DNA from: Candidatus Oxydemutatoraceae bacterium
GTDB lineage: Bacteria > Pseudomonadota > Gammaproteobacteria > Poriferisulfidales > Oxydemutatoraceae
Length of the DNA stretch: 64,000 nt
NCBI GenBank assembly: GCA_965219575.1
Contig: OZ244779.1
Coordinates: forward strand, 492,769-556,768
Direction: 5' to 3'
Position numbers and translations under genes: made by a program. The notes beneath the pieces are model-generated. The model was not told where the DNA came from and made no database searches. It worked only from the letters and a program-made list of their open reading frames with translations. Shown here piece after piece: positions 7,898-42,136 of this stretch; the first letter of the stretch is position 1; every line of letters starts with the position of its first letter.

Positions 7898-9868
7898 ATG
7901 ATGGGAAAACGATTTGATACAGAACTAGAACAACTAGAGCATACATATAAATGGGCTATAGGTGTTGATGTATCAAAAATATCTTGCCTAATCAGAAACT
8001 CTTGTGGTCTTCCTCTGCTATCCGTTGGATCAGGAGGTTCTTTATCAGCTGCAGAGTTTCAAGCCCTTCTTCATAGAACTCTATTTTCGTCCATTGGGCA
8101 GGCTGTAACACCCGTTGAATTAATCTCAATGCTTCCGAGAAATAGGGAAGTTGCAGTTTGGTTTATGTCGGCTAACGGTGACAATATCGATATTTCCCGA
8201 GCCTTTAAGCACACGGCCTTGCATGAAATGAAGTTTGTCAGTGCATTGGTTTGCCGAAAAGAGAGCAAGCTACATAAGCTATCAACAGAATATGAATATA
8301 CAAAGTGTTTTCAATTTCCTATCCCTTCCGGGAAAGACGGTTTTCTTGCAACTAATTCGCTTCTTGTTTTCCTAGTTATCCTCTATAGAGCGTACGGTGA
8401 GGTAATTAAAGAAGTAAATAAGACAGTAGGTTTATCTAAAACACTAAACGCATTAATCAGAAAGTGCCTAGCAAATTTTAGTGGTCTTAAGGACATCAAA
8501 AAAAACGCAGCACCGCTATGTAATAAAAAATCCATACATGTTTTATACAGCCTTGACCTAAAACCTGCCGCATTGGATATTGAATCAAAATTTACGGAGG
8601 CGGGACTCATCTCTTCCCACTTGGCGGATATCAGAAATTTTGCCCACGGCAGACATAATTGGTTCTCAAAGTATGAGGCAGACAGTGGCGTTATTGCCTT
8701 ATCAACCAATAATGATTATAAAGTGATAGAAAAAACGCTTGCCTTATTACCGAATACAATTCCTAAGACTCATATTTCTTTTAATTACTTGGGTGGTGTT
8801 GAAGTAATTGTGGGAATAGTATTATCAATGCACTTGACAAATTGGCTTGGGAAAGAAAGAGGCATTGATCCGGGACGGCCTGGGATTGCGTCCTTTGGTT
8901 CAAAAATATATAGACTGGCAGCTAATCCAGGGTTTGTTACCTCAGTAAAGAAAAAGGAAGCAGCTATAGAAAGAAAAAGAAAATTAGCCCCTCTAAATTA
9001 TGGTAATAGGAGCGAGCAACTATGGGTTGATGCGCATAATAAATTTACCCGAAAGCTTGCAGCAGCGAATATAGGCGGGGTTGTTTTAGATTATGACGGA
9101 ACGGTTGTGGATAGCGATAAACGTTGGGATCCGCCGGGCGCAAGAATGATAAGTGAACTGATAAGATTGTTAGAAGAGAACATGGTTATAGGTTTTGCAA
9201 CAGGTAGAGGAGACTCAATAAGGGATGATTTGCAACAAGTTATTCCAAAGAAGCTTTGGGGTAAGATATTGATAGGTTACTATAATGGTGCTGAATTAAA
9301 ACACTTGTTAGAAAATACAGACTTGAGAACTGCCTCTGACCCTATACCGGAACTAAAGTTACTATCTACTAAATTAAAAAAGAATATTTTTTTACATTCA
9401 GTTGCTGACTTTAAGCAAAAAGAATATCAACTAACCGTAAAATCGAAAGAAAACAAACCTCTTTCGGAGACATTTTTATGGGACTTGGTTCAAGATGAAT
9501 TTCATCAATATCTGGAGCATAAAGGAGACGAGCTTTCTGAGTTTTCTGGGCATAGAGCAAAAATTCTTCGCTCCAGTCATTCAGTAGATATAATTGCAGG
9601 GGATGTATCTAAACTATCTGTAGTAAAAGCAATCAGACAAAATATACAGGAAAATTCTGAGATCTTGAATATTGGAGATAGAGGGAGATGGCCTGGCAAT
9701 GATGCCGAACTTCTCAAAGAAACTCTGTCTTTAAGTGTTGATGAGGTTTCGTATTCTTCAGAGACTTGTTGGAATCTGTGTCCAGCCGGTATCCGAGGCG
9801 CACAAGGCACCCTTTATTATCTTAGCCGATTGAAAAGAAAAAATGGAACCATGAGGTTTTTTCCGTAG
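7898..9868 (+). CDS. SIS (sugar isomerase)-like domains fused to a HAD-family phosphatase
   Basis: SIS-like VGSGGSLSAA, SANGDN, GFLATNS, NFAHGRH; HAD motifs DYDGT, ATGRG, K and GDRG...GND. Confidence 0.8.
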   Translation: MMGKRFDTELEQLEHTYKWAIGVDVSKISCLIRNSCGLPLLSVGSGGSLSAAEFQALLHRTLFSSIGQAVTPVELISMLPRNREVAVWFMSANGDNIDISRAFKHTALHEMKFVSALVCRKESKLHKLSTEYEYTKCFQFPIPSGKDGFLATNSLLVFLVILYRAYGEVIKEVNKTVGLSKTLNALIRKCLANFSGLKDIKKNAAPLCNKKSIHVLYSLDLKPAALDIESKFTEAGLISSHLADIRNFAHGRHNWFSKYEADSGVIALSTNNDYKVIEKTLALLPNTIPKTHISFNYLGGVEVIVGIVLSMHLTNWLGKERGIDPGRPGIASFGSKIYRLAANPGFVTSVKKKEAAIERKRKLAPLNYGNRSEQLWVDAHNKFTRKLAAANIGGVVLDYDGTVVDSDKRWDPPGARMISELIRLLEENMVIGFATGRGDSIRDDLQQVIPKKLWGKILIGYYNGAELKHLLENTDLRTASDPIPELKLLSTKLKKNIFLHSVADFKQKEYQLTVKSKENKPLSETFLWDLVQDEFHQYLEHKGDELSEFSGHRAKILRSSHSVDIIAGDVSKLSVVKAIRQNIQENSEILNIGDRGRWPGNDAELLKETLSLSVDEVSYSSETCWNLCPAGIRGAQGTLYYLSRLKRKNGTMRFFP

Positions 9869-9875
9869 AGAGAAG

Positions 9876-11006
9876 ATGAATAGAGAACTCGGTTTTGAAA
9901 ATTTAGAGAAGATTATGGGATGGGATGATGAAGATGCCCAGAAAGAATCCGATTGGCTTCGTTTTATGTCTAAATATAAGTACGATGATTATAGGGGATA
10001 TCTTGTTGGTGCAAGGTTTATTGAAAGTCTAGTTATCTGGCTTCAGCAATTTGAATCTAAGGATCAAAAAGCGGCTTATGAATATATAAAAGAAAACTTA
10101 ATTTATATCGGTCCTGCTGAAATACAACGACTTATTGGGAAATTTTTTTATGAAGAAGTGCAAAAAAATCTGAGAGAAAAAGTTGCCAAAACTCTGGGTG
10201 TTCCAGAGTATATGGTTTGGTCTTCAGAGAGAAGCGTGGATGAGTTTAAATCTGAAATTCGGAGAACATTGTTTATGGGGTTGAGTGATGGCGCACGTTT
10301 GGACTCCTTCAGAAGAGCTAATGCAGACATATCGAATGAGCAAGTTGTAATAACTACAGAGATTAATAATATCAAATGGGAGGACTTGCTTAAAGAGCTT
10401 GCCGATGACTCTAAAGATAAAGGTAAAGACAAGGAAAAACAAAAATTTGAGAGGGTTTATTTAATTGATGACTTTACTGCTTCTGGAACTAGTCTGATAA
10501 GGGAAGAAAAAAAAGAACTTAAAGGAAAATTAAAAAAGTTTGCCGATGCTCTAAAGCAAGCCCAAGAAAATTTAACAGAGCGTCTTTTTGTAAATAGATT
10601 TCAAATAATAGTCCACCATTATATTGGCACTTATCAAGCGAAGGAAAAAATTGAACAACTATATAATGAACCTTGGATTAAAAAAGAATTGGATATACCC
10701 GATATTCGATTTTCGTTTGGTATGCTTCTTCCTAAAGATATAAGGCTTATCCGCTCTTCCGAAGAGAAATTCGCAGATTTATGTAAAAAATATTACGATC
10801 ATTCTATATACGATGAGCACTTTAGAAAAAGTGGAGCTCCAGACGGAAAATTTGGATATGCTGAATGTGGCATCCCTCTAATCCTATATCACAATACACC
10901 CAATAATTCTCTTTCATTATTGTGGGCAGAAACTAAGGGGGATGAAGGGCATACTATGAAGCCCTTATTTAAAAGAGGACAACGTCATAAGGAATGGTCG
11001 GGATAA
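9876..11006 (+). CDS. Phosphoribosyltransferase-like protein (PRTase-CE-like)
   Basis: PRPP-loop-type motif VYLIDDFTASGTS; C-terminal FGY...L..YHNTPNNS..LLW...PLF.R. Confidence 0.75.
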   Translation: MNRELGFENLEKIMGWDDEDAQKESDWLRFMSKYKYDDYRGYLVGARFIESLVIWLQQFESKDQKAAYEYIKENLIYIGPAEIQRLIGKFFYEEVQKNLREKVAKTLGVPEYMVWSSERSVDEFKSEIRRTLFMGLSDGARLDSFRRANADISNEQVVITTEINNIKWEDLLKELADDSKDKGKDKEKQKFERVYLIDDFTASGTSLIREEKKELKGKLKKFADALKQAQENLTERLFVNRFQIIVHHYIGTYQAKEKIEQLYNEPWIKKELDIPDIRFSFGMLLPKDIRLIRSSEEKFADLCKKYYDHSIYDEHFRKSGAPDGKFGYAECGIPLILYHNTPNNSLSLLWAETKGDEGHTMKPLFKRGQRHKEWSG

Positions 11007-11010
11007 AATT

Positions 11011-12942
11011 ATGATTAATCCCTTCAAGAAAAGAGCCACTGAGTATTTGCGTGATGATGTGGCATTTTTGTCTGTCATTGCTCCGGAACCGTTGCATACA
11101 TTTTTTGAAAAGTATGCTAAAGAAGGGAAACTATATGACCGTCTTAGTATGATTGTTGGAACACCAGGAAGTGGCAAAACGATAATCTCACATCTACTAC
11201 AATATCAAACTGTTCAAACACTATTAGCAAATCCTCTTGCTGATCAATATAAACGATTAATTTATGCTCTCAGAGAATGTGGAATAATTGAAGTTTCAGA
11301 AAATACATTTTCTAGTACATTCGTTGGTTGTCGAATCCCGATGGAATCTGAATATAGAGACTTTTGGGAATTGCCCTATGACGACAATATCAAAATGGGA
11401 TTGCTCAAGTCCTTTTTACAGGCGCGCGCCATGCTTTCATGGTTAAAAAACATTGACATTGATCCTAATGTTGATCTTTTATCAGTAAAAATTCAGTTGC
11501 GTGAAGGTGCCGGTGTTGCCCAAAACAGTCTAGGGGGAAATGATGGCAAAAGCCTATTTGAAAAGGCTAGGGACATTGAGTCCTCTATATACGAAATAGA
11601 AACCGCTTTGGTGCCGCCCTCGGAAGAGAAATTGAGTAGTAACATTGCATCAGGATCTTATCGTCCTTTTGACGCAATAGAGTGTTTTGTTGTCAATAAA
11701 ACGGATGGTCCTGCTTCGCTAAGACCTATGGTAATGCTTGATGATATTCATACCTTACATCCTAAACAATTATCAAATTTAGTTAATTGGTTAGCAAAAA
11801 GAGAGATGAAAATTGCTAGATGGATATTTATGCGACTGGATACAATAACACCTAAATCTATCTTTTTAGGGGAACTACATACAAACTATGATGTTGAATA
11901 TGAATCACCCATCAAGCAGAGCAGAGAAATCACTTATATTTGGTTGCAAGATCTAGAAAATAGAAAAGAAGCACGATCCGAATTTCAAAAAATGGCACAA
12001 ACTATGGCAAATAAATATCTACAACGCATGCCAATATTTGACCGCCAAGGGTTAACGGATTTTTCCGGTCTTCTTAACAAAAAAGTTGAGCCTATTAGCG
12101 ACCCTAAAATGAACAAACTGAAAAATAGGGTTGAAAAATTTGTCTCTAAAATAAATATCCATGAACAAATTTATCAAAAATTTGAAAAGGATATTGAATC
12201 GTATTTTTTAGGTGCAAAAACTATTGATAACTCAAAGGACGTAAAGTTGGCAATGCTTTACATTATGCTGAATAGATACCTAAAAAGAGTGCCTCAAAGG
12301 AGCTTATTTGATCAACCAGAATTCAAGCCGATTAAACCTAGTTCTGGTTTAGTAGATGGTGCAAAGATATTTCTTATGCATGAGTATGATCGCCCATACT
12401 ATTATGGGGTAGATACTGTTTGTCGTGGGAGTTCCGAAAATGCAGAGCAGTTTCTGCAATTATCTAGCCGGCTTGTGGACAAGATGGAAACAAGGATAAT
12501 TAGATCTAAGCCCGCGAACTTGTCCCCAGATTATCAGCATAAATTACTTAAAGAGCGCGCAGAAGAGATAGTTAAAGAATGGGATTTTCCAAGGAGCCGT
12601 GAAGTTAAAAAGTTATGTAAACTTATGGCTAAAGAATGTTTGGAAAAGAGCCGCGAACCCAACGCTCCTTTGAATGGAGGGGCAAATGCTATTGGTATTC
12701 CACGGGATGAGTTTGAAAAAATACTATCGGAATCGCAATATTCAGAGTTGAGAGAAATTTTAAAGTTTGGAATGGCATATAATGCAATTACTATGAAGCC
12801 CAGGCACTCTACCAAAAATAAATTATGGACTCTAATAGAACTGTCTGGGCCGATGATTATTTTTTCTGGTCTGACATTATTTAGAGGTGGGTTTTTAGAG
12901 AGAACTGTAAACGATTTATTAAGCTGGCTTAAAGAAGAGTAA
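11011..12942 (+). CDS. P-loop ATPase (ORC/CDC6- or STAND-like)
   Basis: Walker A GTPGSGKT and Walker B VMLDD; N-terminal NPF..RATE. Confidence 0.75.
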   Translation: MINPFKKRATEYLRDDVAFLSVIAPEPLHTFFEKYAKEGKLYDRLSMIVGTPGSGKTIISHLLQYQTVQTLLANPLADQYKRLIYALRECGIIEVSENTFSSTFVGCRIPMESEYRDFWELPYDDNIKMGLLKSFLQARAMLSWLKNIDIDPNVDLLSVKIQLREGAGVAQNSLGGNDGKSLFEKARDIESSIYEIETALVPPSEEKLSSNIASGSYRPFDAIECFVVNKTDGPASLRPMVMLDDIHTLHPKQLSNLVNWLAKREMKIARWIFMRLDTITPKSIFLGELHTNYDVEYESPIKQSREITYIWLQDLENRKEARSEFQKMAQTMANKYLQRMPIFDRQGLTDFSGLLNKKVEPISDPKMNKLKNRVEKFVSKINIHEQIYQKFEKDIESYFLGAKTIDNSKDVKLAMLYIMLNRYLKRVPQRSLFDQPEFKPIKPSSGLVDGAKIFLMHEYDRPYYYGVDTVCRGSSENAEQFLQLSSRLVDKMETRIIRSKPANLSPDYQHKLLKERAEEIVKEWDFPRSREVKKLCKLMAKECLEKSREPNAPLNGGANAIGIPRDEFEKILSESQYSELREILKFGMAYNAITMKPRHSTKNKLWTLIELSGPMIIFSGLTLFRGGFLERTVNDLLSWLKEE

Positions 12943-12944
12943 AC

Positions 12945-14087
12945 ATGACTGTCTCCTCTGGAGGGAATGGAAATAGATGGGAATTATGTATCGACCACTA
13001 CGACGATGCAGTGTCCGAATTTTTTGAGCAACACTTTTCGGAAGAACATAGGGAGTGCCTTTTCATTGGAAGCGTAGGATTTGATCCTAGAAGTAACATC
13101 ATAGTTAAAGAATTATGCTCTATTATGGAAGAGCGTTTACATATTATCTTACTGGAAGAGATACGTTCTAGCTCCGATTTAGAGTTAGTAAAAAGAACAA
13201 AGGGAAATATAGCCGAAGCTAAAAACCTATCTTCCCAAACCAAAGTTTTAGAAATAAATATATTTTCAGAACATGATGGGGCTGTAGTTGGAGGTATCGG
13301 TATTCTCAATCGCATAAAAGAAATAGATATTACTAACTATGCTGATATTGTTATTGATATGAGTGTATTTTCTGTTGGTGTCAGCTTCCCTCTCGTTAAA
13401 TATATTTATGAATGGGCAAATAACGCTAAAAAGCCCGTTAATGTTCATTTGACATTTACTTCTAATAACGAACTAGATTCTTACATATCTGAATCTTCGA
13501 CTTTAACTGATTATGCAACCAATGTTAGAGGATTCCCAACCCCCAATTTGTTGGGGGCAGGAGAAAAAGCGAAACTTTGGCTTCCTCTAATGTCTACCGA
13601 TAAAGAGAGGATTTTGAGTAAAATTTATGATAGAACAAAACCGCATGATATCTTTCCTATTTTTCCATTTCCATCAGAAGATCCTAGAGAAGGAGACAAA
13701 CTTGCCGCTATTTATTATAGGGAAGAGTTAGGAAGCCTTTGGGAAGTTGACCCACAAGATTTTATATATACAGACGAAGAAAGACCTCTGGATATTTACC
13801 GAACTATTATGAGAATTAATGAAGACCGTGAACTGGTATTTAAGACATTTGGCGGATCAATGCTAATTTTATCTCCTCTAGGTAGTAGAATGCCAGCTAT
13901 TGGTATGTTGATGGCTGCACTAGAAGGCGGGTTTCCTGTCGTGTATGTTGAGACATTAAATTATCATGTCGAGGATTGGGGAAAAGTTGATGAAACATCA
14001 CAGGAGGAGAATATGGAAATTGCCCATTTTTGGCTTTACGGGGAAGCCTATTATAATGACAAAAAGAAATTTGAATCCTTGAAATAA
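12945..14087 (+). CDS. Hypothetical alpha/beta protein of the PRTase-ATPase operon (possibly CARF-like)
   Basis: 380 aa, 2 bp after the ATPase; FIGSVGFDPRS, IVIDMSVF and LSPLGSR..AIG segments; fold guess is inference only. Confidence 0.6.
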   Translation: MTVSSGGNGNRWELCIDHYDDAVSEFFEQHFSEEHRECLFIGSVGFDPRSNIIVKELCSIMEERLHIILLEEIRSSSDLELVKRTKGNIAEAKNLSSQTKVLEINIFSEHDGAVVGGIGILNRIKEIDITNYADIVIDMSVFSVGVSFPLVKYIYEWANNAKKPVNVHLTFTSNNELDSYISESSTLTDYATNVRGFPTPNLLGAGEKAKLWLPLMSTDKERILSKIYDRTKPHDIFPIFPFPSEDPREGDKLAAIYYREELGSLWEVDPQDFIYTDEERPLDIYRTIMRINEDRELVFKTFGGSMLILSPLGSRMPAIGMLMAALEGGFPVVYVETLNYHVEDWGKVDETSQEENMEIAHFWLYGEAYYNDKKKFESLK

Positions 14088-14098
14088 ACAAGTGGATT

Positions 14099-15148
14099 AT
14101 GAATAGATACCTACCAAGCGTTTATGGCACAGGCTTAGTTTCGCTAGACATTATTATAAGTATGCGCCCCGAAGAGCATTATCACTGGTCTGGTGGTACA
14201 TGTGGCAATGTTCTGACCATATTAAGTTATTTAGGATGGGAATCTTTTCCTATCGCTCGGTTAAATTCCGATGCTGCCTCAGTTCGTGTGAGAGCAGATA
14301 TGGAACGCTGGAATGTTCGCTTAGATTATGCCGAGCAATCACCTACGACCAGTACTCCGATTATTGTCCAAGAGAATTCGATCAATAGGCAGGGGCTATC
14401 CGTTCACAAATTTCACTGCAGACAGTGTCCTAGATGCGGCGCAGGGCTTCCAAATCACAAGGCAGTTACTCTTTCGGCTACTGAGCGGATAAAAGATGAT
14501 GTCTCGCAAGGAACCCTTTTCTTTTTTGATAGAACCTCTCCCGGTGCCATTAATCTTGCAAAACACTTCAAACGTATTGGGGCAATTATATTTTTTGAAC
14601 CATCTGCCAAGTCGGACTTAAGACAGTTAAAGCAGGCTCTAATGCTTGCAGACATCGTTAAATATTCGGATAAAAGATATCTTGAGCCAATGTCGGATAT
14701 CAAAGGTGCCACTTCTGCTTTCCTTGAGATTCATACTCTGGGGAGTGAGGGTTTGCGATATAGAACCCATGCCTCAAGCAGACTTAGTAGAAGATGGAAG
14801 AGATTACGGACTTTTCAGGCACGGCAATTCAAAGATAGCTGTGGTTGTGGTGATTGGACAAGTGCTGGTTTAATATCAAAGCTTTGTAATAGAAAAGCAG
14901 CACGCTTGAGAGGGGTATCAGAAAATTCCGTTATTACCGCACTAAATTATGGACAGGCTTTAGCGGTGTGGAACTGTGATTTTGAAGGTGCTAGGGGAGG
15001 AATGTATCAAGTAAAAAAACTTACATTTAAGAAACATATTCAACAAATACTTAAAGCTGGTGTTCTAAAAAGAGGAAATCGTACAAAAACACTAGAAAGC
15101 GAAATTTTTGATAGTGAAAGTTGTTGCTGCTACAGCTTAAGTGCATAA
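14099..15148 (+). CDS. PfkB/ribokinase-family carbohydrate kinase with a Cys-rich insert
   Basis: GGTCGNV...LSYLG and DSCGCGD (PfkB DxxGxGD signature); CRQCPRCG insert. Confidence 0.85.
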   Translation: MNRYLPSVYGTGLVSLDIIISMRPEEHYHWSGGTCGNVLTILSYLGWESFPIARLNSDAASVRVRADMERWNVRLDYAEQSPTTSTPIIVQENSINRQGLSVHKFHCRQCPRCGAGLPNHKAVTLSATERIKDDVSQGTLFFFDRTSPGAINLAKHFKRIGAIIFFEPSAKSDLRQLKQALMLADIVKYSDKRYLEPMSDIKGATSAFLEIHTLGSEGLRYRTHASSRLSRRWKRLRTFQARQFKDSCGCGDWTSAGLISKLCNRKAARLRGVSENSVITALNYGQALAVWNCDFEGARGGMYQVKKLTFKKHIQQILKAGVLKRGNRTKTLESEIFDSESCCCYSLSA

Positions 15149-19523: not shown

Positions 19524-19567
19524 ATGCACGGTTAATTAGACCTTAACTGGTTTATATTCAGGCGGTG

Positions 19568-19790
19568 CCTTCGCATCACCGCTCTAACGAATCGTACTCA
19601 TTAAACGGTCATGAGCGATGGCATGAAAGAAATTGCCGGCGATGGCGTATCCGGCATCATCGCTCTAATCTTCGGACAAGCCCAAAGTAGCAATAACCAT
19701 GCCCATATCAAATTCATGCCTCTTGAGTTTTCCCATCCTGATACCCAGCTATAATCGGTGAACCGGTAAATAGCGTTTGGGGTGGTTGTA
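19568..19790 (-). pseudogene. Degenerate, internally deleted fragment of a paralog of the GHKL gene at 22071-23915
   Basis: DNA aligns by eye with ~23096-23255 and ~23360-23410 (LFTGSPIIAGYQD vs LFTGSPILAGHQD). Confidence 0.75.
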
Positions 19791-19792
19791 TT

Positions 19793-20317
19793 GTGGGACT
19801 GTTGAAAAAGTATCCACGAACTGTAGGGCTGGTACATTCCCCTCCTTTGGAGGGGTGGCAGGCGCAGCCTGACGGGGTGGTCGCTGGGGTCTTGCACAAT
19901 GTCACGCCGATTAACCTACTGGCTTAATCGGCAGCTTTGTTCTGCCCGTAACGCGTTTCGCCTGCACGATTTATACATTCATTCATCCAGTTTATGGAAA
20001 CCAAAACCATACGGCGCAAGCGATTACGGCCGTGCAGAACGGTACTTTTTCAACAGTCCCACATGGGGCTGTTGAAAAAGTATCCACGAACCGTAGGGGC
20101 GGACTAGCATGTCCGCCCGTAGCGCGTTGGTCGGCACAATTTATACATTCATCCACCCGATTTATGGAAACCAAAACCATACGGCGCAAGCGATTACGGC
20201 TGTGCAGAACGGCACTTTAGGGCGGACATGCCAGTCCGCCCCTACAGCGGTTTATAAATATTCACGGCGCAAGCGGTTGAGTTTGAGCGATGCCCGCACT
20301 TTTTCAACAGTCCCACA
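19793..20317. repeat. Two tandem MITE-like modular repeats
   Basis: Each is bounded by GG(G/A)CTGTTGAAAAAGT...ACTTTTTCAACAGTCCC and carries GTAGGGGCGGAC..GTCCGCCC or CCCCTCC..GGAGGGG hairpins. Confidence 0.85.
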
Positions 20318-20347
20318 TTTCTACTTTGGGTTGACATCTACACAATG

Positions 20348-21214
20348 TCACAGCCGTTCGGCTATTTTTTCTATTTCTTTTTGGTTGGATTGTGGGGTTT
20401 GCACTTCAATCGCTTTCCATACGCTCAGGTATCCGATTTGGTCAATGATTTTTTCCAATTTTTTATTGTCAATTTTTTTGTTTTTTTCGAGAAATAGCAA
20501 TAGTCCGCCGAATATGTTTTCCGAACTTATATAGCTTTTCCCGCTATGCATTTTTGCAGAAAACCCAGCATAATATTTTTCATCTAGAATTTTCAGTATA
20601 AGGCTGGGTTCCCTATCTATAATGTTGGACATTTTATCTGCCCACCGCCATCGCCAGTAGGCCTTTCCGAGATGAAAATCATTAAATACGATTCTCGTAC
20701 CTCTTGGTATCGGATTGCACATAGAGCGTAAAACTCTTCTAACACGCTTGTCTATTTTTCCTACCTCGCCGGATGCTAGGGCATTGTCAATCATATAACT
20801 GCCTGTGCCATTTGTATCCTTAGAGTCCGATGCCAAAAAAAGTGGCTGGATCTGATCATTCTCGATCATCTTGATAATCATATAACCCCAGAAATTACAC
20901 TTGCAGGCGACTTCATCGGGTAGCTCCTTAAATGCTTGCCAGATTTTTTCTTGAGTATCATAAGGCGGGTGAATGAATTCTCGCTCGGTAAATTGGTGTG
21001 TAAAATTAACCAGTTGACCATCGCTAGAATTATCCAGCAACTTCTTGTGTTTTAAGTGTCTTAGAAAATCATTTTTTCCCAATTTACAAGCAGCGAGAAA
21101 TTCTCTTTGTTCCTCCGAGCCTTTATTCTTATTCAACTCCTTACCAAAATCCTCCCAGAGCTCTCCATCAAGTATTTTATATTCACTCATCATCGGTTTC
21201 TGTTCTGATTTCAC
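20348..21214 (-). CDS. Hypothetical protein, last gene of the PP-loop/GHKL operon
   Basis: 288 aa, overlaps the upstream gene; FWGYM and LGKAYWRWRW segments; no family recognised with confidence. Confidence 0.7.
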   Translation of the reverse strand: MKSEQKPMMSEYKILDGELWEDFGKELNKNKGSEEQREFLAACKLGKNDFLRHLKHKKLLDNSSDGQLVNFTHQFTEREFIHPPYDTQEKIWQAFKELPDEVACKCNFWGYMIIKMIENDQIQPLFLASDSKDTNGTGSYMIDNALASGEVGKIDKRVRRVLRSMCNPIPRGTRIVFNDFHLGKAYWRWRWADKMSNIIDREPSLILKILDEKYYAGFSAKMHSGKSYISSENIFGGLLLFLEKNKKIDNKKLEKIIDQIGYLSVWKAIEVQTPQSNQKEIEKIAERL

Positions 21215-22049
21215 TTAGAGCGTAGGGATTCATTTTTGTAGATGCCAAACTTGGATCAAAGTCTTCATCCTCCCAGCTTTTTCCTGTTTTATGCTCTAGC
21301 ATTTGCAGGTGATTCAATAGTGCACCACCTATTTGGTTCTCCTCATGATTTAAACTCTGCATATATGCATAGGTTGCGCATAATGCTTGGGTAGCGATAG
21401 CCGAACCCATTGCTTCATCAATGCCATGGGGCTTTTCTTGATGAACTTTTACCAGTTGGTCATAAACATCTTTGCCACAATACAAACGAACAGGGGTCTC
21501 ACCCTCTCCAGCATGTTCCCTGACCTTGACTTCCATCTCACCATCGCCAAGTTCTTTTTTATGGACAAAATCCATTAAATAGAATAAGTCGCCTGTAGAG
21601 AAGGTTAGTTTGGGACCTATAGCAATGCGGGCATGTCTAGGTATGAAGAGAGACTCACCCAGTCTCCAAAAGTTTTTCAATCCCGATGAATCATCCACCG
21701 TAATTTTTGTGTCCTCCGAAGCGATAATGCTGGGCATAATCTCCGGAGCATAAGAAAAGTCTATCGGTATGGTTTGCGCAATAGTTATGGCTCCTTCTTG
21801 CATGGATGAACTACTTTTGTCATATAAGTGATGTTGTCGCTCGGAACTATCCCTGTAAAGCAACCTAACGGAAAACTGCGCTTTACCTTGTTCCAGTAAG
21901 TTTGAAATGAATGAATGACCTTTGAGACTGTGTTTTAAGTATATTTGGTTGTTGTCTTTTTTGGCTTTGACTTCATAAGCAATGGTTTCTATAAAATCAC
22001 TGCTGTCCCTTCTTAAAATCGGAAAATCAAGTATTAGATTATCTAGCAC
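21183..22049 (-). CDS. Hypothetical acidic protein of the PP-loop/GHKL operon
   Basis: 288 aa, beta-rich N-terminus starting FPILRRDSSDF; 21 bp after the GHKL gene. Confidence 0.7.
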   Translation of the reverse strand: MLDNLILDFPILRRDSSDFIETIAYEVKAKKDNNQIYLKHSLKGHSFISNLLEQGKAQFSVRLLYRDSSERQHHLYDKSSSSMQEGAITIAQTIPIDFSYAPEIMPSIIASEDTKITVDDSSGLKNFWRLGESLFIPRHARIAIGPKLTFSTGDLFYLMDFVHKKELGDGEMEVKVREHAGEGETPVRLYCGKDVYDQLVKVHQEKPHGIDEAMGSAIATQALCATYAYMQSLNHEENQIGGALLNHLQMLEHKTGKSWEDEDFDPSLASTKMNPYALSEIRTETDDE

Positions 22050-22070
22050 TTTGGCAACTCCTCGGATTTT

Positions 22071-23915
22071 TTAGCGTCGTTTCAACCCTAGCATGGGTGA
22101 TAAAGCGACTTTCATGTCTCCGATATCATCCGGTTTTTCAATTTCGGCAATCAAGTCGTATTCTCTATCTTTACGCAACGAACCCAATTTGATCTGAGTT
22201 TTACTATCATCGGAAACCTTGATTGTCTCACCGTTCAATTCGGCTGTTATGAAGTCAAGATCAGTGCCTTTTCCCTCATCACTATCTTCTCCTAGACTCA
22301 TTGACAAGTACACATCATCTCTAGCATTTTCTTGTTGTGTGGGAGTAATCCTTAACCGCACTTGCCATTTGCTACCGTTGTCTATATATCTAACGGCAGT
22401 CCTTGACTCTAGTAATCTGGAAATAACGGTTGGTGTGGGGTTTCCATTATCCTCTCTCGGTACTCGTTCTTTTTTCGGTTTGGGCGGTTTCCTTGATTTA
22501 GGAGTGGGACATGCTTCTTTGCTTTGTCTGTCCGATTTTTTGACACCGCTGACATTTTCCTTTGCTTCATTAGGTAGGGTGAATAACGGCAAATCAACAG
22601 AAGTCCGTTCTATCTTTTTTAAATAGCCAGCCTTCATCTCTCTGCTTAATTCTCTCAGTAGCCTTTTCAGCTCTTTCTCATATTCTTTGACAAGTAGACC
22701 TCTCTGCAATCTATTATGATAGGGTCCTTCGGCATTTTTTACTAACTCAAATAATTCTGGAGCATTATGTTTATCAATATCAATAATTGCGGTAAAAGGT
22801 TCAAAATCTGGTTCTTTTCTTAAGTTGTTTACGTCCGTAGATAACATGGAGTCGTGGCGGGCGACGACCATCCCATTCCTAACCAGTATGATAGCGGAAT
22901 TGGTGTTTTTGTCGCTTTTGATGCACACATGGACCTTATCGGAATTACTAAGTGCAATGATTTTTTGCGAACCTTGCTCTTGAAGCGTCTGCCACGCTTG
23001 AAAGACCATTTTGCCTGATAGTATATTGTCTCCCCGTGCTTGTTTAACCTCTTTTTTCCCGCCGATCAGTTGTTCAACTCGGTCATCGGAGATTTCCTTC
23101 GCATCACCGTCCTTATGAATGGTAATGTTTAAACGATCATGAGCGATGGCATGAAAGAAGTTACTAACGATGGCGTATTCGGCATCATCGCTCCAATCTT
23201 CGGACAAGCCCAGAATAGCAACGACCGTGCCGGTATCAAATTCGTGCATCTTGGGTTCGATAAAAGCTGGAGGTTTGCTGAGGTAAGTGAACTTTGGATT
23301 TTTTTCATTCTCGGGCTTCTCCGTTACAATCCTGCCTCTATTGCCTCGTTCAGCGTCTACATCCTGATGTCCGGCTAAAATTGGTGATCCGGTAAATAGT
23401 GTTTTTGGAGTGCCGTTGTCCTTATACTTTGAGGCATAAAGCACATAGCGGAGCGATGAGAGCGAATAGCTCGATAAATTACCCACCCCATAGGAACCGC
23501 CTGACTCTTCATCACCTTTGATACTATGACCTCCTGCCAGCATGCCGTCGAGCCGATCTGGGTTCATTCCCACGCCATTATCGGCAAACATTAGTACTTC
23601 TAGTTCTTTTCTCTTTAAGGCTTCTTTAATTGGCGCAATCCTTTGTTCTACGTTTTTGTTGTAACTTCCCTTATCTTTTACTGTCTTAATGGCTTTATCT
23701 AAGACTTCTCTGTATTTTTCAATATGTGGAATTTCACTTACGGAGATTGTTTCGATGTATATATCTACTTTGCACTTATTGTGTGCTTCTTTGGAAGCAT
23801 CTAGTGCATTTTGCAGTAACTCTCTAATCGGATTCGTGTAGCCTTCTTTTTTATCCGCCAAGTCACTTCCGGTAAATCCTTCCATTTTGCCGAGCCTGAA
23901 ATAAAGTTCTGACAT
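22071..23915 (-). CDS. GHKL-family ATPase
   Basis: N-box RELLQNALDA, G1 DNGVGM, G2 GGSYGVG, G3 GTVV; Pro/Lys linker and beta-rich C-terminal domain. Confidence 0.85.
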   Translation of the reverse strand: MSELYFRLGKMEGFTGSDLADKKEGYTNPIRELLQNALDASKEAHNKCKVDIYIETISVSEIPHIEKYREVLDKAIKTVKDKGSYNKNVEQRIAPIKEALKRKELEVLMFADNGVGMNPDRLDGMLAGGHSIKGDEESGGSYGVGNLSSYSLSSLRYVLYASKYKDNGTPKTLFTGSPILAGHQDVDAERGNRGRIVTEKPENEKNPKFTYLSKPPAFIEPKMHEFDTGTVVAILGLSEDWSDDAEYAIVSNFFHAIAHDRLNITIHKDGDAKEISDDRVEQLIGGKKEVKQARGDNILSGKMVFQAWQTLQEQGSQKIIALSNSDKVHVCIKSDKNTNSAIILVRNGMVVARHDSMLSTDVNNLRKEPDFEPFTAIIDIDKHNAPELFELVKNAEGPYHNRLQRGLLVKEYEKELKRLLRELSREMKAGYLKKIERTSVDLPLFTLPNEAKENVSGVKKSDRQSKEACPTPKSRKPPKPKKERVPREDNGNPTPTVISRLLESRTAVRYIDNGSKWQVRLRITPTQQENARDDVYLSMSLGEDSDEGKGTDLDFITAELNGETIKVSDDSKTQIKLGSLRKDREYDLIAEIEKPDDIGDMKVALSPMLGLKRR

Positions 23916-23927
23916 ACCTTCTCCTAA

Positions 23928-25181
23928 CTAGTCTGTACAATTACAAGGGATATAGCTTTCATCCTCCAGATAATCTGCATCCGTGTTGTCAAACTGATTT
24001 TTGATAGCGGGATAAACCCAGTGATTGGTTGCTCCAAAAAAGCTGATATAAGCCACATTTCTCTTTGATTTGATTGGTCTTTTTTCTGCTTTCAGATCAC
24101 GACTATACTTGCGCTCCATTTCAATCCACCAGTCTATCGATGCGGGCGTGTTATCGGGCATGTTTTGAGATAGTTCACTTTGCGCAATCTGTATCAATTT
24201 CCTTTTACCCTTTAATGGGCAATACACACAGTTCGAGAAAATCCCGTTATCGGGTAGGTCTAAATCAAACGGCTGCTTTTTCCAAAAATCAATGACATCC
24301 TGCTTAGAGATATTATTATCTACTAACGGTGCGTAAATGCTTTCTTTTGGTGGTTGCTCGGTAGGAGATCGCCTTTTTTGGTTTTGCGAGTATGCAATTC
24401 TGTCTCTGATTTTCTCTACTCGGATTTCTTCGTCCTTTCGTATGCCCAAACAGGAAACATACGCGATCGCTTTATCACCGAACAGTTGACCTTTGCCGCC
24501 TAGAACCGAATTTTTGATTGACTCGTTATTCATGCACAACTGGCTTTTCGTAAAGTCTTTCCACATCGCAGCTTCTCTGACAAAGGTTTGTTTTCTGGAA
24601 AACGATTTTTTTGCTAATAAGATATTATCCGGTGTCTTCCCTCCATTGGCTCGGTGATGTCGGATGACTTCTTCTGCGCTCATTTTGGGTTCATTGCCGG
24701 TATGTCCGAGTCGTTCAATCCCCTCTTTCTGTGCCAACCAATCCGATAGAAATTCATTGGTGATCCTGATTTTCAAAGTTTTAGTGCAGATTCTAGACTG
24801 CATGTTGGGCAGAAATCCTGCATGTGAGACCATTTCTTCAAACGCTTCTCCTTGCCAGCGATAGCCGTGTGGGTTGTCCTCACTGAGTGGAAATTCATTG
24901 ACTAAGCGATATGTAGAGTTGCGCATCCATCCATGTCTGCCCGCATCCTCATAGGTTTGATATTCAACCCAGAAAAACGGGATATTATATTTATCCTCGA
25001 CTAACTGTTTCATATTTCTTGTAAATGCGTAGGTCGCCGGGTGCTCTGCAGATGTGTTGTTGAAGACAATCACGTCTCCTCTTTCTGGGCATAATGTGCC
25101 TTGCTTGAGCAGCTCCATCAGCATCATTCCCGATGAGCGGCCACCTGAAAATTTTACGATGTGTGGTTTGTTCATCGGCAA
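23928..25181 (-). CDS. PAPS-reductase-superfamily PP-loop protein, lambda NinC-like, with putative metal/Fe-S cysteines
   Basis: FSGGRSSG, NTSAEHPATY, RICTKTLK, GIRKDE, FWKKQPFDL, NCVYC and terminal PCNCTD. Confidence 0.85.
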   Translation of the reverse strand: MPMNKPHIVKFSGGRSSGMMLMELLKQGTLCPERGDVIVFNNTSAEHPATYAFTRNMKQLVEDKYNIPFFWVEYQTYEDAGRHGWMRNSTYRLVNEFPLSEDNPHGYRWQGEAFEEMVSHAGFLPNMQSRICTKTLKIRITNEFLSDWLAQKEGIERLGHTGNEPKMSAEEVIRHHRANGGKTPDNILLAKKSFSRKQTFVREAAMWKDFTKSQLCMNNESIKNSVLGGKGQLFGDKAIAYVSCLGIRKDEEIRVEKIRDRIAYSQNQKRRSPTEQPPKESIYAPLVDNNISKQDVIDFWKKQPFDLDLPDNGIFSNCVYCPLKGKRKLIQIAQSELSQNMPDNTPASIDWWIEMERKYSRDLKAEKRPIKSKRNVAYISFFGATNHWVYPAIKNQFDNTDADYLEDESYIPCNCTD

Positions 25182-25532
25182 AGTCTATCTTGTGCAGCCG
25201 AGTAAGCTATACACCGTTTCAGCGGCTTCAGTTTGAGTATTTTGCCTTGCATCAGTGGTTTGAGGCCTCTTCGTATAAACTTGCAAGCATTCAAATAATT
25301 GTATCGGAGAAATCGTGATGTGATGATGATATTGCATTAGGAATCTTTTCCAGAATGTTAGTATAAATGTGCTAATCGTAGCACTTTGCGGCAATGTAGT
25401 CAAAGATATAGTTTCTTCGACCTCTGGCAAAATTTACTGTTAATACTGGAGGAAGTTATCTAATTAACTGGAAACTAGTAATATGAAAATGCGCTTCGCC
25501 CGTTTTTTAATTTCTATTGCGCTTCATTTCCG

Positions 25533-26108
25533 CTATTTCTTCACCATTTCCATTTTAGAAGCCTCGATAGCCTCTTCCAGTTTCTCTTTTAACTCGGCGA
25601 TGGCTTGCTTGGTGTTCGCATGATTTTCCTTGAGTATCTTGGCGTGTTCCACAATTGCTTTTTCTGGTTCATCTACGCTTTTCCCTATTTTTTGATACAG
25701 TTGCAGGAGGTCGTTGTTGCGATGTAGCAAATCAATCATACACTTTGAAATGACATAAGTATTGATAATCATTTTGCGCAATTCGTCATCGGCAAGATAA
25801 CCGATAGAGGAAGCGTTGCCATCGTAGATAGTGAAGAAATTCTTGCCCATCGGATAGTGAATAGGAAAAGGCTGGTTTTCGCCTAGTTTTTCTATTTCCT
25901 TCCCGACATTTTCGTAATAACCATCCCATATAATTGTTATCTCGCTATGAATGGCTCGGAGCAGGTTTTCAACCAGTCCTTGTTCTTTTTGCTCGGCTGC
26001 CTTTCGTTGGCGGGATAAACTTACCAGTAGTGCTATTATGGTAAGCGCACTGCCGATTACACCGGCAACAATAGCCATGATAGCGATACCATATAATATG
26101 AATTCCAT
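25533..26108 (-). CDS. Hypothetical protein with N-terminal transmembrane helix
   Basis: 191 aa; AGGAG RBS; hydrophobic residues 1-31 then a helical domain. Confidence 0.65.
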   Translation of the reverse strand: MEFILYGIAIMAIVAGVIGSALTIIALLVSLSRQRKAAEQKEQGLVENLLRAIHSEITIIWDGYYENVGKEIEKLGENQPFPIHYPMGKNFFTIYDGNASSIGYLADDELRKMIINTYVISKCMIDLLHRNNDLLQLYQKIGKSVDEPEKAIVEHAKILKENHANTKQAIAELKEKLEEAIEASKMEMVKK

Positions 26109-26285
26109 GTTTTACTCCTGATTAAGGTGAAGTGGATGTTCCAATGAGAGTTTATTGTATGCTACTTCCGACTTTCCTCAAAGACAACGATCTGCCCGGA
26201 GACAAGCGGTTTAGGTTGTGAACCATCCCTTCAGGCGGAGCCTGCCACCCTCACAGGAGGGAATAGCTGGTCTACAGATTTAGTT

Positions 26286-27476
26286 CTATTCCGGCATGAT
26301 CCTTTTCATAAAGCTGTCAAAGAGAGGGACTGTAAACTCTGTATCTCCATGAGAGGGGCTGTAGATCATTCCTTTTTTTATCAGTTTGTTTCTTAAAGGG
26401 GCTACACTTTGAGGGCTGACCCCTAATTTTTCGGCTATATCTCCTGAGCGATGACTTCCGCCACCGAAAGAGGCTAAAGCTCTAAGGTATTTCTTTTCTT
26501 TGGGCGTGAGCCTGTCAAAGCGCACCCGGAAAAAACCCTCGTCTAAGCGATTCAACGAATGTTTGTTCGCTTTTTTTACAACATCCAAAGTGATTATTTT
26601 TGAGTTGGATAAATTCCAGCATTGGTATCCCCACTCTTGTAAAAAATAAGGGTAGCCTTTTGTTTTGTTAAAGATCTCTTCGAGGGCTTTTTTATCAAAG
26701 CGTACATCAAAGGCTTCGGTAGGTTTTTGAAGGGCTTGAAAGGCAAGTTCTTTTTCAAGAGGTCCGAGATGAGGAAAGTCAAACATTCTTTCTGCATAAG
26801 ACTTTGAAGCCCCTACAAGGCTTAGCAGTTGAGGCAGTCCCGCACCTATCATTATCAGAGGAAGTTGTTTTTGCACGATTCTATGAAAAGCCATAATAAG
26901 CGCGCTGAGTTCTTTTTTTGATAAGTATTGAAGTTCATCTAGTATCAGGACTAAAACTGCATTGTGTTCTTTTATAGCTTCACCGACATGTTCCAAGAGA
27001 ATAGGAACATCGATTTCCAAATCACCGCTATCGGCAGAGCCTTTTTCCGGTTCAATATCTAAATCTAAACTTATTTCAATATCGCCGTACTTTAGCTTCA
27101 GGGATTTCAAAAAGCTCTTAAGTATACGAAAAGCCTTTTTAATTTTTTGACTATTTCCTTTATTTTGAAGGCTAAACAGTAGCTTTTGCAGATGAACGGC
27201 CAAGGTTGTAGAAAAGTGTTTTTTCTCATGAGCTTCTATATAGATGGAGTAGCAGTTGTATTTTTCTACAATGCCGTCAATTTTGTTCAAAAGAACCGTT
27301 TTCCCTACCCCTCTTAAGCCTACTAACAGGAAACTTTTTTCTGATTTTCTGCGGTGGAGTCGGGCTAGGGCGAGACGGGCTTTTTCTAAAATCTCCGAGC
27401 GACCTACCAGTGCCGGCGGAGGGGCTCCTGCGCCCGGAGAAAAGGGGTTTTCTATCTTATGTTCTTCGTAGTCCAT
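26286..27476 (-). CDS. AAA+ ATPase with C-terminal winged helix
   Basis: NPFSPGAG, Walker A GLRGVGKT, Walker B LILDELQ, GYPYFLQ and R..LIKKGMIY. Confidence 0.9.
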   Translation of the reverse strand: MDYEEHKIENPFSPGAGAPPPALVGRSEILEKARLALARLHRRKSEKSFLLVGLRGVGKTVLLNKIDGIVEKYNCYSIYIEAHEKKHFSTTLAVHLQKLLFSLQNKGNSQKIKKAFRILKSFLKSLKLKYGDIEISLDLDIEPEKGSADSGDLEIDVPILLEHVGEAIKEHNAVLVLILDELQYLSKKELSALIMAFHRIVQKQLPLIMIGAGLPQLLSLVGASKSYAERMFDFPHLGPLEKELAFQALQKPTEAFDVRFDKKALEEIFNKTKGYPYFLQEWGYQCWNLSNSKIITLDVVKKANKHSLNRLDEGFFRVRFDRLTPKEKKYLRALASFGGGSHRSGDIAEKLGVSPQSVAPLRNKLIKKGMIYSPSHGDTEFTVPLFDSFMKRIMPE

Positions 27477-28761: not shown

Positions 28762-29586
28762 TCATGCTATAGCCTCCGCAAATACACTTGGGGGTTGATA
28801 ACCCAATGCGCTGTGCGGACGCACTTCATTATAATCTATTCGCCAGGCTTCTATAATCTCTCTCGCCTCTTTTATTGAACGAAACCAGAACTGGTTCAGA
28901 CAACCGTCTCGGAACTTGCCGTTGAAACTTTCTACAAAGGCATTCTGGGTCGGTTTGCCGGGTTGGATAAAGTCCAATTCCACCTGCTGATCTCGGCTCC
29001 AGTGGAACATCGCCTTGCATCTAAACTCGGTGCCATTGTCGCAGACGATGCGTGCCGGCTTCACACCGAGCCATTCTATCAATTCGGATAGATAGTTTGC
29101 TACGCGTTGACCGGTGATCGAAACATCAACAATCTGTCCGACACATTCACGGCTGAAGTTATCTACTATGTTCAATACCCGAAAGCATCTGCCGTCGCTA
29201 AACTGGTCATGCACAAAGTCCATTGACCAGCACTCATTCACCGTTGCCGGTGTTTTCGGCACGCCACGCGGATGACACAGCTTCTTGCGCTTCTTGGTTC
29301 TCAATTCGAGCCTGAGCTTCTTATAAAGCCTATAGGTACGCTTCACATTGACGACCCGGCCTTCGCTCTTCAAAAGCGCATGCAACATCTTATAGCCATA
29401 ATGTGGATATTGCTTTGCCTTCTCCAATAACGCAGCTTCCAGTTGACGATCTTTATCGGCTTGGTTGCCCTGATAGCGATATGCAGTGCGACTAATACTG
29501 GCAAGGGCACACGCAGTGCGTTCACTATGCCGACCCGCGCTCACTAGATCTTTGACAATCTGCTTGCGTTGCGCCGGCTTTACCAC
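28762..29586 (-). CDS. IS3 transposase OrfB (DDE)
   Basis: WSMDFVHD, CDNGTEF, PGKPTQNAFVESFNG and RPHSALGY. Confidence 0.95.
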   Translation of the reverse strand: MVKPAQRKQIVKDLVSAGRHSERTACALASISRTAYRYQGNQADKDRQLEAALLEKAKQYPHYGYKMLHALLKSEGRVVNVKRTYRLYKKLRLELRTKKRKKLCHPRGVPKTPATVNECWSMDFVHDQFSDGRCFRVLNIVDNFSRECVGQIVDVSITGQRVANYLSELIEWLGVKPARIVCDNGTEFRCKAMFHWSRDQQVELDFIQPGKPTQNAFVESFNGKFRDGCLNQFWFRSIKEAREIIEAWRIDYNEVRPHSALGYQPPSVFAEAIA

Positions 29587-29846
29587 TTTTTTGATAATAC
29601 CTCCTTAAGTGTTTCACACTGCATCACCGATTCAGCCAATAGCTTCTTGAGCTTGCTATTATCGGCTTCAAGCTCTCGCAGGCGTTTAGCTTCTGCCACT
29701 TCCATGCCATTATACTTGCTGCGCCAGCGATAAAATGTCTGTTCGGCGATGCCTAGATCACGACAGATATCGATTACTTTCATGCCGGCTTCGTTTGACT
29801 TTAATGCCTTAATGATTTGTTCTTCACTAAAACGTTTTCTCTTCAT
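29580..29846 (-). CDS. IS3 transposase OrfA
   Basis: MKRKRFSEEQII...TFYRWRSKY...RLRELEADN.KLKKL; overlaps orfB at an A-rich site. Confidence 0.92.
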   Translation of the reverse strand: MKRKRFSEEQIIKALKSNEAGMKVIDICRDLGIAEQTFYRWRSKYNGMEVAEAKRLRELEADNSKLKKLLAESVMQCETLKEVLSKKW

Positions 29847-41646: not shown

Positions 41647-41722
41647 TCCTCGGTAGCTCAGTTGGTAGAGCGGGTGGCTGTTAACCACTAGGTCGGCGGT
41701 TCGAGCCCGTCCCGAGGAGCCA
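41647..41722 (+). tRNA. tRNA-Asn(GTT)
   Basis: TCCTCGG...CCGAGGAGCCA cloverleaf; anticodon loop CTGTTAA. Confidence 0.97.
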
Positions 41723-41751
41723 CTCTCCCCGACGATTTCAGAGGAACAGAC

Positions 41752-41852
41752 TATTCCCCTCCTGTGGAGGGGTGGCAGGCGCAGCCTGACGGGGTGGTCG
41801 CTGGGGTCTTGCACAATGTCACGCCGATTGACCTACCGGCTCAATCGACGGT
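41752..41852. repeat. Partial modular repeat between convergent tRNAs
   Basis: TTCCCCTCCTGTGGAGGGGTGGCAGGCGCAGCCTGACGGGGTGG plus CCGATTGA..TCAATCG hairpin. Confidence 0.75.
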
Positions 41853-41884
41853 TCTGTGCTTAACGACAATAAATGGTATCGACA

Positions 41885-41961
41885 TGGGGTGGACGATGGG
41901 GATTGAACCCACGACCTCAGGAGCCACAATCCTGCGCTCTACCGACTGAGCTACGCCCACC
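41885..41961 (-). tRNA. tRNA-His(GTG)
   Basis: G(-1)GTGGGCG...CGTCCACCCCA; anticodon loop TTGTGGC. Confidence 0.97.
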
Positions 41962-42030
41962 ATGTCTAAAGCCATTATAATTTGCGTCATCGTAGTTGCT
42001 CGCATCAACATAAACGACGGCAATTCTCTA

Positions 42031-42107
42031 TGGCGCGCCTGGCAGGACTCGAACCTGCTACCCTCGGCTTAGAAGGCCGATGCTCTATCCAAATGAGCTA
42101 CAGGCGC
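42031..42107 (-). tRNA. tRNA-Arg(TCT)
   Basis: GCGCCTG...CAGGCGCGCCA; anticodon loop CTTCTAA. Confidence 0.97.
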
Positions 42108-42136
42108 ACATACAGATTTCAATCATTATATATAAA

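Follow-up and report, generated by a model that had tools for sequence, protein, structure and literature searches.

The window analyzed in this study is a stretch of 64,000 nucleotides (nt) from Candidatus Oxydemutatoraceae bacterium (contig OZ244779.1, positions 492,769 to 556,768), and its positions 20348-25181 carry a cassette of four minus-strand genes, termed A, B, C, and D below. A encodes a PP-loop enzyme akin to the NinC proteins of phages, B encodes a GHKL ATPase, and C and D each encode a protein of 288 amino acids (aa). Its novelty lies in the NinC-clade PP-loop enzyme as a fixed companion of the GHKL trio B-C-D. By analogy with the sulfur-based DNA modification systems, we propose, with a probability of about 50%, that A marks host DNA with sulfur and B-C-D acts on unmarked DNA, the four genes forming a mobile cassette that would operate in the manner of restriction-modification (R-M).

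Organization and linkage of the cassette

A (23928-25181; 417 aa) begins with TTG, with an ATG two codons further on, and is followed after 12 nt by B (22071-23915; 614 aa), an intact open reading frame (ORF), and after another 21 nt by C (21183-22049). C overlaps D (20348-21214) by 32 nt if the GTG start of the latter is used; alignments with homologues begin near residue 8 of D, so that the actual overlap may amount to about 8-11 nt. The ORF listing, in which all four genes are intact, thus agrees with the tightly spaced four-gene set that an earlier note, made from the letters of this stretch, had described. That note had also remarked on the absence of dndBDE, sspBC, and a methyltransferase from the operon, and no such model matches any of the four proteins. 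In PADLOC, NCBIfam, and Pfam, B, C, and D gave no match to the dndD/dndE or sspB/sspC families at E <= 0.01, and neither of these gene pairs, by which a Dnd or Ssp modification module would be recognized, lies beside the PP-loop gene. A scan of positions 19800-26300 for promoters and terminators gave counts no higher than in shuffles.

The relationship between A and the trio was assessed in 80 loci fetched through A from species-representative genomes, which belong mostly to uncultured bacteria of many phyla and many of which are named after marine invertebrate hosts (sponge, mussel). Profiles of the four proteins placed A, B, C, and D on the same strand and inside a 9-kb span in 67 of the 80 loci, arranged either as A-B-C-D or as B-C-D-A (e.g., L027, L046, and L065). 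B was present in six further loci that are cut at an end (L009, L021, L035, L043, L045, and L058). B is broken and both C and D are missing in L022, and no trio was found in L025, L032, L061, L066, L071, and L078, among which L025, L032, and L066 have little upstream DNA covered. Thus, the linkage of the PP-loop gene to the GHKL trio, first suspected from the window, recurs in other genomes.

Over 48 loci (50 trios minus the two in L052), the pairwise identities of A and those of B were correlated with a Spearman coefficient of 0.89, a value reached in none of 500 permutations. Because A and the trio are linked and diverge together, and because the genes flanking the cassette in the window recur in none of the 80 loci, we regard the cassette as moving and diverging as a unit. 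A was found in 10 of the 53 genomes of the order and in one of the four other genomes of the genus, there at only 39% identity, and its closest copies (67-72%) reside in Nitrospirales and other Gammaproteobacteria. The cassette lies in a stretch with a GC fraction of 0.41-0.48, between lower- and higher-GC DNA, with insertion sequence (IS) elements and other defence-type genes around it. Neither A (E <= 1e-10) nor B (E <= 1e-6) had a match in the plasmid collection. Altogether, the cassette is horizontally mobile, patchy in its distribution, and island-borne.

Exchange of the PP-loop enzyme for DNA methylases

A metagenome scan with the alignment of B recovered at least 21 confirmed loci with 19-33% identity to B of the window. 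Among the matches listed, the trio is accompanied by the PP-loop enzyme in two (L083, with an ORF of ~390 aa in the desulfurase position, and L084), by a C5 cytosine methylase upstream of B in eight (L085, L088, L091, L098 at its second trio copy, L099, L100, L101, and L102), and by a D12 N6-adenine methylase, together with DUF7226, downstream of D in three (L087, L089, and L097). No modification gene was identified in another eight (L086, L090, L092-L096, and L103), which are mostly short contigs; the upstream ORF of L094 lay outside the scan. The trio-linked C5 methylases are 337-349 aa long and cover the full Pfam C5 model (1-324), and in L085, L091, L098, L099, and L102 their genes run into the start of B. 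The sole genome match of DUF6339, a family to which many relatives of D belong (see below), has the order C5 methylase-B-C-D, with a methylase that shares 48% identity with its counterparts in L091 and L102.

A midpoint-rooted tree built from 50 B proteins put the 36 linked to a PP-loop enzyme in one clade and the 14 others in its sister group, in which the D12-linked proteins were nested among the C5-linked ones. Thus, one large branch of the trio system has the PP-loop enzyme where a DNA methylase would otherwise stand. The alternation between a C5 methylase and the PP-loop enzyme that the earlier note had envisaged does occur, and the D12 N6-adenine methylase takes part in it as well.

Restriction-type genes also occur at these distant trios. 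In L100 and L101, the methylase and B have a gene for an NgoFVII-type restriction enzyme between them, and L095 carries such a gene upstream of its B. In both L085 and L098, two diverged copies of the methylase-linked trio enclose a gene for an abortive-infection protein of the AIPR type (Pfam, 4.5e-89 and 2.8e-92, respectively), a composite layout that recurs.

The PP-loop enzyme A

The PP-loop of A reads SGGRSS and spans residues 12-17, and the cysteines C132, C318, C321, C413, and C415 are invariant in an alignment of 12 family members; A thereby combines SGGxxS near the N-terminus with cysteines common to its relatives, as expected of a protein of the PP-loop/PAPS_reduct type. C132, C318, and C321 align also with NinC of Escherichia phage ArgO145 and with a PAPS-reductase-like protein of Phage C72C1, and both phage proteins share with A the PP-loop and the motifs C132-T-x3-K137, G246-x-R-x-D-E251, and N317-C-x2-C-x2-K324. 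The two (224 and 292 aa) are shorter than A and lack roughly 80-100 residues corresponding to positions ~150 to ~235 of A, and the C-terminal C-x-C of A is absent from ArgO145 NinC. A tblastn search yielded 76 phage records matching A at E <= 0.001; the identity is 25-31% among the matches listed, the named ones are annotated as NinC or PAPS reductase, and none spans 80% of A. The motif alignment and the phage matches together uphold the initial description of A as NinC-like.

The nearest relatives of A beyond its own family, for which the protein collection yielded 1456 sequence clusters at E <= 0.001, are phage proteins. In the Atlas, the nearest named clusters are PAPS_reduct and largely viral (score 0.94; 22 of 30 hits with the PAPS_reduct family set). 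A pattern scan of IMG/VR revealed no close relative of A, and a search of PDB sequences with the A profile returned nothing at E <= 1. The local matches of A in PADLOC were led by SspD (5.2e-08), confined to residues 118-153, and followed by DndC and BrxP, the last confined to residues 8-73 (E 5.6e-4).

To our knowledge, no function has been assigned to NinC of phage lambda. The ninC gene is listed as encoding a nonessential protein of the PAPS reductase family (PMC10695390). In Phage C72C1 (L106, 1961-3786), the gene for the PAPS-reductase-like protein follows a DNA methyltransferase gene at a distance of ~300 nt, an arrangement that fits phage NinC-type proteins acting on DNA marks.

Genes accompanying the cassette

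Clustering of the neighbouring proteins revealed a class-V aminotransferase of the cysteine desulfurase type in 32 of the 80 A-linked loci, usually between A and B (Pfam, 4.6e-84 in L051 and 2.6e-83 in L011). In the more distant A-linked loci, A and B are separated by about 1.1 kb, and this gap is filled by the desulfurase-type gene. The genome from which the window comes has an IscS-like gene elsewhere (297.8 bits), and dndA or sspA is often replaced by IscS (PMC12914056). A GmrSD_N/DUF262 protein of ~600 aa is encoded inside the operon in 18 of the 80 loci, and the four copies scanned all match PF03235; DUF262 is a domain of SspE, which senses phosphorothioate (PMC12914056). The other 62 A-linked loci have no DUF262 gene within about 9 kb, and the operon in the window contains none either. 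A DndB-like protein was found in six of the 80 loci, and the one scanned matches PF14072 (9.3e-19).

Four routes of DNA phosphorothioation are established, namely Dnd, Ssp, Tdp, and BREX type 4, and all but Tdp combine a PP-loop enzyme with a P-loop NTPase (PMC12914056). Among the dndC homologues in Fig. 2A of the same source is a small cluster named 'Sulfurimonas sp.' that has a DUF262 neighbour; this cluster could overlap with the A family, since L062 is a Sulfurimonas locus.

A large protein of ~650 aa with a sigma-70 region-4 helix-turn-helix was found in 10 loci (L043, L051, L053, L059, L064, L072, L073, L076, L077, and L080). One more is encoded beside a methylase-linked trio (L097:6736-9165), the overall size range being 650-920 aa, and these proteins may be a regulator or a further module. 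In five loci, a protein of ~500 aa accompanies them, and two of its three copies scanned gave a weak, sub-threshold match of the methyltransferase type.

Two GmrSD_N/DUF262 genes lie outside the window on the same contig (G000:C1:491977-492339 and 564404-565282), one starting ~790 nt before the window and the other lying ~7.6 kb past its end. Neither is near the cassette, to which they could provide an unlinked partner sensing the modification. DUF262 (GmrSD_N) domains are not specific to phosphorothioate.

The GHKL ATPase B and the identity of the trio

B possesses all three motifs of the Bergerat fold (E32/N36/D39, D112-x-G114-x-G116, and G140/G143/G145), which are invariant in 36 sequences. 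Most of these residues are identical in 50 of 50 relatives, as are R346, M349, E396, and H400. B is therefore an intact GHKL ATPase, as it had been called at the outset. Its score against Pfam HATPase_c_3 is 23 bits, with the cut-off at 25, and it matches PDC-M33A of PADLOC at 85.7 bits (E 7.3e-25). The best PDB sequence matches of the B profile are Hsp90 (E 5.4e-4), MORC3, topo VI-B, and MORC2, all of them weak. The invariant E396-x3-H400 fits the E-x3-H motif as worded for paraMORC2 in PMC2292703, a comparison made by description. We take this pattern as a lead toward a paraMORC-like nature of B rather than as a family assignment. Iyer, Abhiman and Aravind (2008, PMC2292703) predicted that the prokaryotic MORC/paraMORC GHKL ATPases are parts of R-M systems, and paraMORC3 has been validated as a defence protein (PMC12137116).

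Besides the match of B to PDC-M33A, PDC-M33B is matched by 35 of the 46 members of the C family (best E 3.3e-13) and the PDC-M33C models by 12 of the 41 members of the D family. DUF6339 (PF19866) is matched by 21 of the 41 aligned D relatives at E <= 0.01 (best 2.9e-10). C and D of the window themselves gave no PDC-M33 match at E <= 0.01. Judging from these sequence matches, B-C-D is a divergent branch of PDC-M33, a defence candidate catalogued in PADLOC. DUF6339 is rare, being present in one of 401 sampled genomes of the phylum, and no paper on PDC-M33 or DUF6339 was found in the open-access literature or bioRxiv. The earlier note had presented the four genes as a candidate new system. The trio is not wholly new in view of PDC-M33; for its combination with the PP-loop enzyme, no description was found in open-access papers and bioRxiv, with supplements outside the scope of the search.

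Directly downstream of D, positions 19540-19900 (minus strand) hold a relic of a second GHKL gene, which is 72-73% identical to residues 222-274 of B, with weaker pieces back to about residue 170, and is interrupted by two TAG stops. The relic suggests that this site once carried an older cassette copy, which was replaced or decayed.

The partner proteins C and D

C is modelled with a mean pLDDT (the model's own confidence score) of 88.5 as an N-terminal FN3/Ig-like beta-sandwich, followed by further strands and helices that form a helical C-terminal part. D is modelled as all-helical (pLDDT 92.2) and is, judging from its relatives, a divergent member of the DUF6339/PDC-M33C family. The fold search with C returned generic FN3/Ig beta-sandwich matches only (best Z 8.2), while D had no Foldseek match in the PDB at E <= 0.001 and a best VIA-align Z of 6.5 limited to its last three helices (residues 231-288), results that do not establish the novelty of either fold. 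The D profile retrieved one designed protein among PDB sequences (E 0.13). The PDB matches of the C profile were two designed helical proteins, which we took as compositional. Neither protein of the window is recognized by the libraries: C has no Pfam, NCBIfam, or PADLOC match, and D has no library match, including DUF6339 (PF19866, cut-off 23.2 bits). The C family is nevertheless large, as its profile matched 1464 representative clusters among 1.84 billion at E <= 0.001, 200 of them at E <= 1e-30; its clusters in the Atlas are all unnamed.

Residues P10, A57, R71, A143, and G170 of C and F50, W109, I122, and W187 of D are conserved among 52 to 58 superfamily members. Natural fusions of a full-length C with a full-length D following it were found in four (P0192, P0207, P0240, and P0259) of the 150 best representatives of the C family. 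The modelled C-D complex reached an interface score (ipSAE) of 0.70, with 0.00 for the best control; the mark of 0.70 is reached by 58 of 80 solved complexes and by two of 110 mismatched pairs, counts that apply only roughly here, as our own alignments were used for the model. The model runs agreed in at least 58% of contacts with a partner pLDDT of at least 82, and the modelled interface takes in residues 66-73 of C, including the conserved R71. The fusions and the complex model suggest that C and D bind each other. C and D were also considered as paralogues, since they merged under single-linkage clustering; this merge arose via the fused ORFs, and BLASTP detected no similarity between the two (E 0.92), so that the idea was rejected.

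Surroundings of the cassette in the window

Directly upstream of A, 25533-26108 (minus strand) encodes a transmembrane/coiled-coil protein of 191 aa, followed at 26286-27476 (minus strand) by an AAA_16 ATPase of 396 aa with a MarR-type winged helix. Both were considered as cassette members and rejected, as they recur in none of the 80 loci; the two may form a small defence pair of their own.

A C5 cytosine methylase (356 aa; Pfam, 3.5e-57) and a 421-aa ORF without a Pfam match overlap each other at 1845-4173 (minus strand). These two genes, some 17 kb away from the cassette, probably make up a type II R-M system distinct from it. Five plus-strand genes at 7898-15148 encode a HAD-like protein of 656 aa, PRTase-CE (PF24390, 2e-24), an ORC-CDC6-like ATPase (PF24389, 3.4e-11), a 380-aa protein without assignment, and a pfkB-type kinase, and this run looks like another nucleotide-based conflict system in the island. 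The island is framed by mobile elements: an IS1595-type transposase at 4962-5921, a PDDEXK_2 transposase-like gene at 6538-7533, and an IS3-type element with an rve integrase core and a small upstream ORF at 28762-29846. At 41647-43695, four tRNA genes (Asn, His, Arg, and Pro) adjoin a gene for an AAA_15/AAA_21 ATPase (444 aa), a type common in OLD/Gabija/AbiEii-like defence genes.

Proposed function and alternatives

In the proposal that we prefer, A, with cysteines of the iron-sulfur type, would activate a site of host DNA using ATP and swap oxygen for sulfur. The sulfur would be supplied by a cysteine desulfurase, which would be the housekeeping IscS-like protein in the present genome and the product of a dedicated operon gene in many relatives, and the most likely product of A would be a backbone phosphorothioate. 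B would probably be an ATP-gated dimeric clamp that, together with the C-D pair, makes up an ATP-driven complex acting on DNA without the mark and thereby serves defence against phages. The invariant E396-x3-H400 of B would be the most likely place for catalysis or for contact with DNA.

Several observations weigh against this proposal and give room to a different division of labour, in which B-C-D would be an ATP-driven module that scans DNA and recruits the modifying enzyme to its target (A here, a methylase elsewhere), much as in Dnd and Ssp. In Dnd, Ssp, and BREX type 4, the PAPS-reductase-type PP-loop enzyme requires an NTPase partner for modification (DndD, SspC, and BrxC, respectively; PMC12914056), and B-C-D could be such a partner. 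No nuclease or other effector domain was recognized in B, C, or D by library, fold, or PDB sequence searches, and neither C nor D keeps a catalytic-type residue across the superfamily. Some loci carry separate genes of the restriction type, such as those for the DUF262 proteins in 18 of the 80 loci, which occupy the place that SspE takes in Ssp, for the NgoFVII-type enzymes in three of the 21 loci among the matches listed, and for the AIPR proteins between trio copies; under this alternative, these variable extras would restrict, and the cassette of the window, which has none of them, would be an orphan epigenetic sulfur-modification system. The exchange of A for a methylase is itself no proof of an effector role, because the DndDE core is reported to pair with cytosine methylases too (PMC10853773). 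Further points also count against our proposal. The cassette of the window has no desulfurase of its own, the DUF262 neighbours match HEC-05 of PADLOC and not the SspE model, and A matches no Pfam family at E <= 0.01, PAPS_reduct (PF01507) included, and scores 19.6 bits (E 3.5e-4, residues 125-180 only) against the DndC equivalog TIGR03183, for which the cut-off is 290.4. An effector role for the trio is nonetheless favoured by the trio-linked C5 methylases, which are full-length and stand-alone and should need no targeting partner. Moreover, the 62 A-linked loci with no DUF262 gene nearby would be left without this restriction component, the trio on its own figures in PADLOC as a defence candidate, and tdpC alone is enough for phosphorothioate synthesis, which makes a PP-loop enzyme without an ATPase partner feasible (PMC12914056). 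We consider the recruiting module the main alternative, a serious possibility albeit less likely than our proposal.

The nature of the mark and of the target leaves room for other explanations, to which we assign smaller chances. A could install a mark other than phosphorothioate, such as a thiolated base or an aminated or amidated group, with B-C-D still as its reader or partner. DUF262 domains, as noted above, do not point to phosphorothioate in particular, the closest relatives of A are NinC-type phage proteins and not DndC or SspD, the DndC cut-off is missed, and PP-loop enzymes include RNA enzymes that thiolate bases (PMC12914056). However, all PAPS-reductase-type enzymes linked to DNA (Dnd, Ssp, and BREX type 4) make phosphorothioate (PMC12914056), the best match of A in the defence library is SspD, and the cysteine desulfurase and DndB-like neighbours mirror the dnd and ssp loci, rendering a different mark improbable. 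The target of A might even not be DNA, as enzymes of the PP-loop/PAPS-reductase fold include ThiI, MnmA, Ncs6, and TtcA (PMC12914056). The substrate thiolated by A would then be tRNA, another RNA, or a small molecule, with B-C-D as an unrelated passenger that is chaperone-like or serves signalling, in line with the membership of Hsp90 and histidine kinases in GHKL and with Hsp90 as the best PDB match of the B profile. This is very hard to reconcile with the C5 and N6-adenine DNA methylases that fill the same slot in trio relatives, with the DNA-directed neighbours (DndB-like, DUF262, NgoFVII-type, and AIPR), and with the patchy, horizontally transferred distribution in a defence-type island. 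Such islands pack unrelated systems, and the window holds several, so that the four genes might simply be chance neighbours; as 67 of the 80 loci, from many phyla, keep all four together in one of two conserved orders, as A and B co-diverge, and as the flanking genes recur in none of the 80 loci, we give this next to no credence.

Implications and comparison with known systems

If our proposal of a sulfur-writing A and a trio acting on unmarked DNA holds, the cassette would represent a widespread sulfur-marking system that rests on a GHKL ATPase and two proteins of no known fold or function. It would provide the first functional handle on PDC-M33 and DUF6339 and a natural experiment on how a GHKL ATPase reads C5-methyl, N6-methyl, and sulfur marks with the same trio. 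A bolder version, which is speculative and in our view rather unlikely, is that the NinC-clade enzyme writes the sulfur mark without any Dnd, Ssp, or Brx partner, as a fifth route to phosphorothioate or toward the first native thio-base, and that a nuclease-free GHKL clamp made of B and C-D reads the mark and shuts down unmarked DNA without cutting it. By extension, the NinC-type proteins of lambdoid and other phages would be writers of sulfur into DNA for counter-defence, a hypothesis that can be tested.

What is already known includes GHKL ATPases beside methylases (2008, PMC2292703), the trio as a PADLOC candidate, and the replacement of methyl by sulfur in BREX type 4. The Dnd and Ssp systems resemble the cassette in that a PP-loop enzyme of the PAPS-reductase type stands beside an ATPase, the desulfurase is often encoded in the operon or replaced by IscS, and DndB-like and DUF262 proteins are optional neighbours. 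They differ from it in having DndD, DndE, SspB, and SspC, all absent here, while the ATPase of the cassette is of the GHKL and not the P-loop type. The available part of PMC10853773, on the DndDE core, contains no mention of Hsp90, histidine kinase, MutL, gyrase, PAPS reductase, or DUF6339. In BREX type 4, a protein of the PAPS-reductase type likewise sits in the methylase slot of a defence system and phosphorothioate is made (PMC12914056), but BrxC, PglZ, and BrxL have no counterparts here. TdpABC, likened by description only, offers in the self-sufficiency of tdpC a precedent for a self-sufficient A (PMC12914056).

On the side of the ATPase, the paraMORC systems are similar to the trio, as their GHKL ATPase adjoins DNA methylases (mostly cytosine), restriction enzymes, and AIPR. 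The partners described in the available part of that paper (PMC2292703) are helicases and nucleases, with no mention of C- or D-like proteins, PAPS, or a PP-loop. A further counterpart is PDC-M33, whose three components A, B, and C have the same gene order and sizes as B-C-D. PDC-M33 corresponds to the trio, whereas in the present cassette the PP-loop enzyme is a fixed fourth member.

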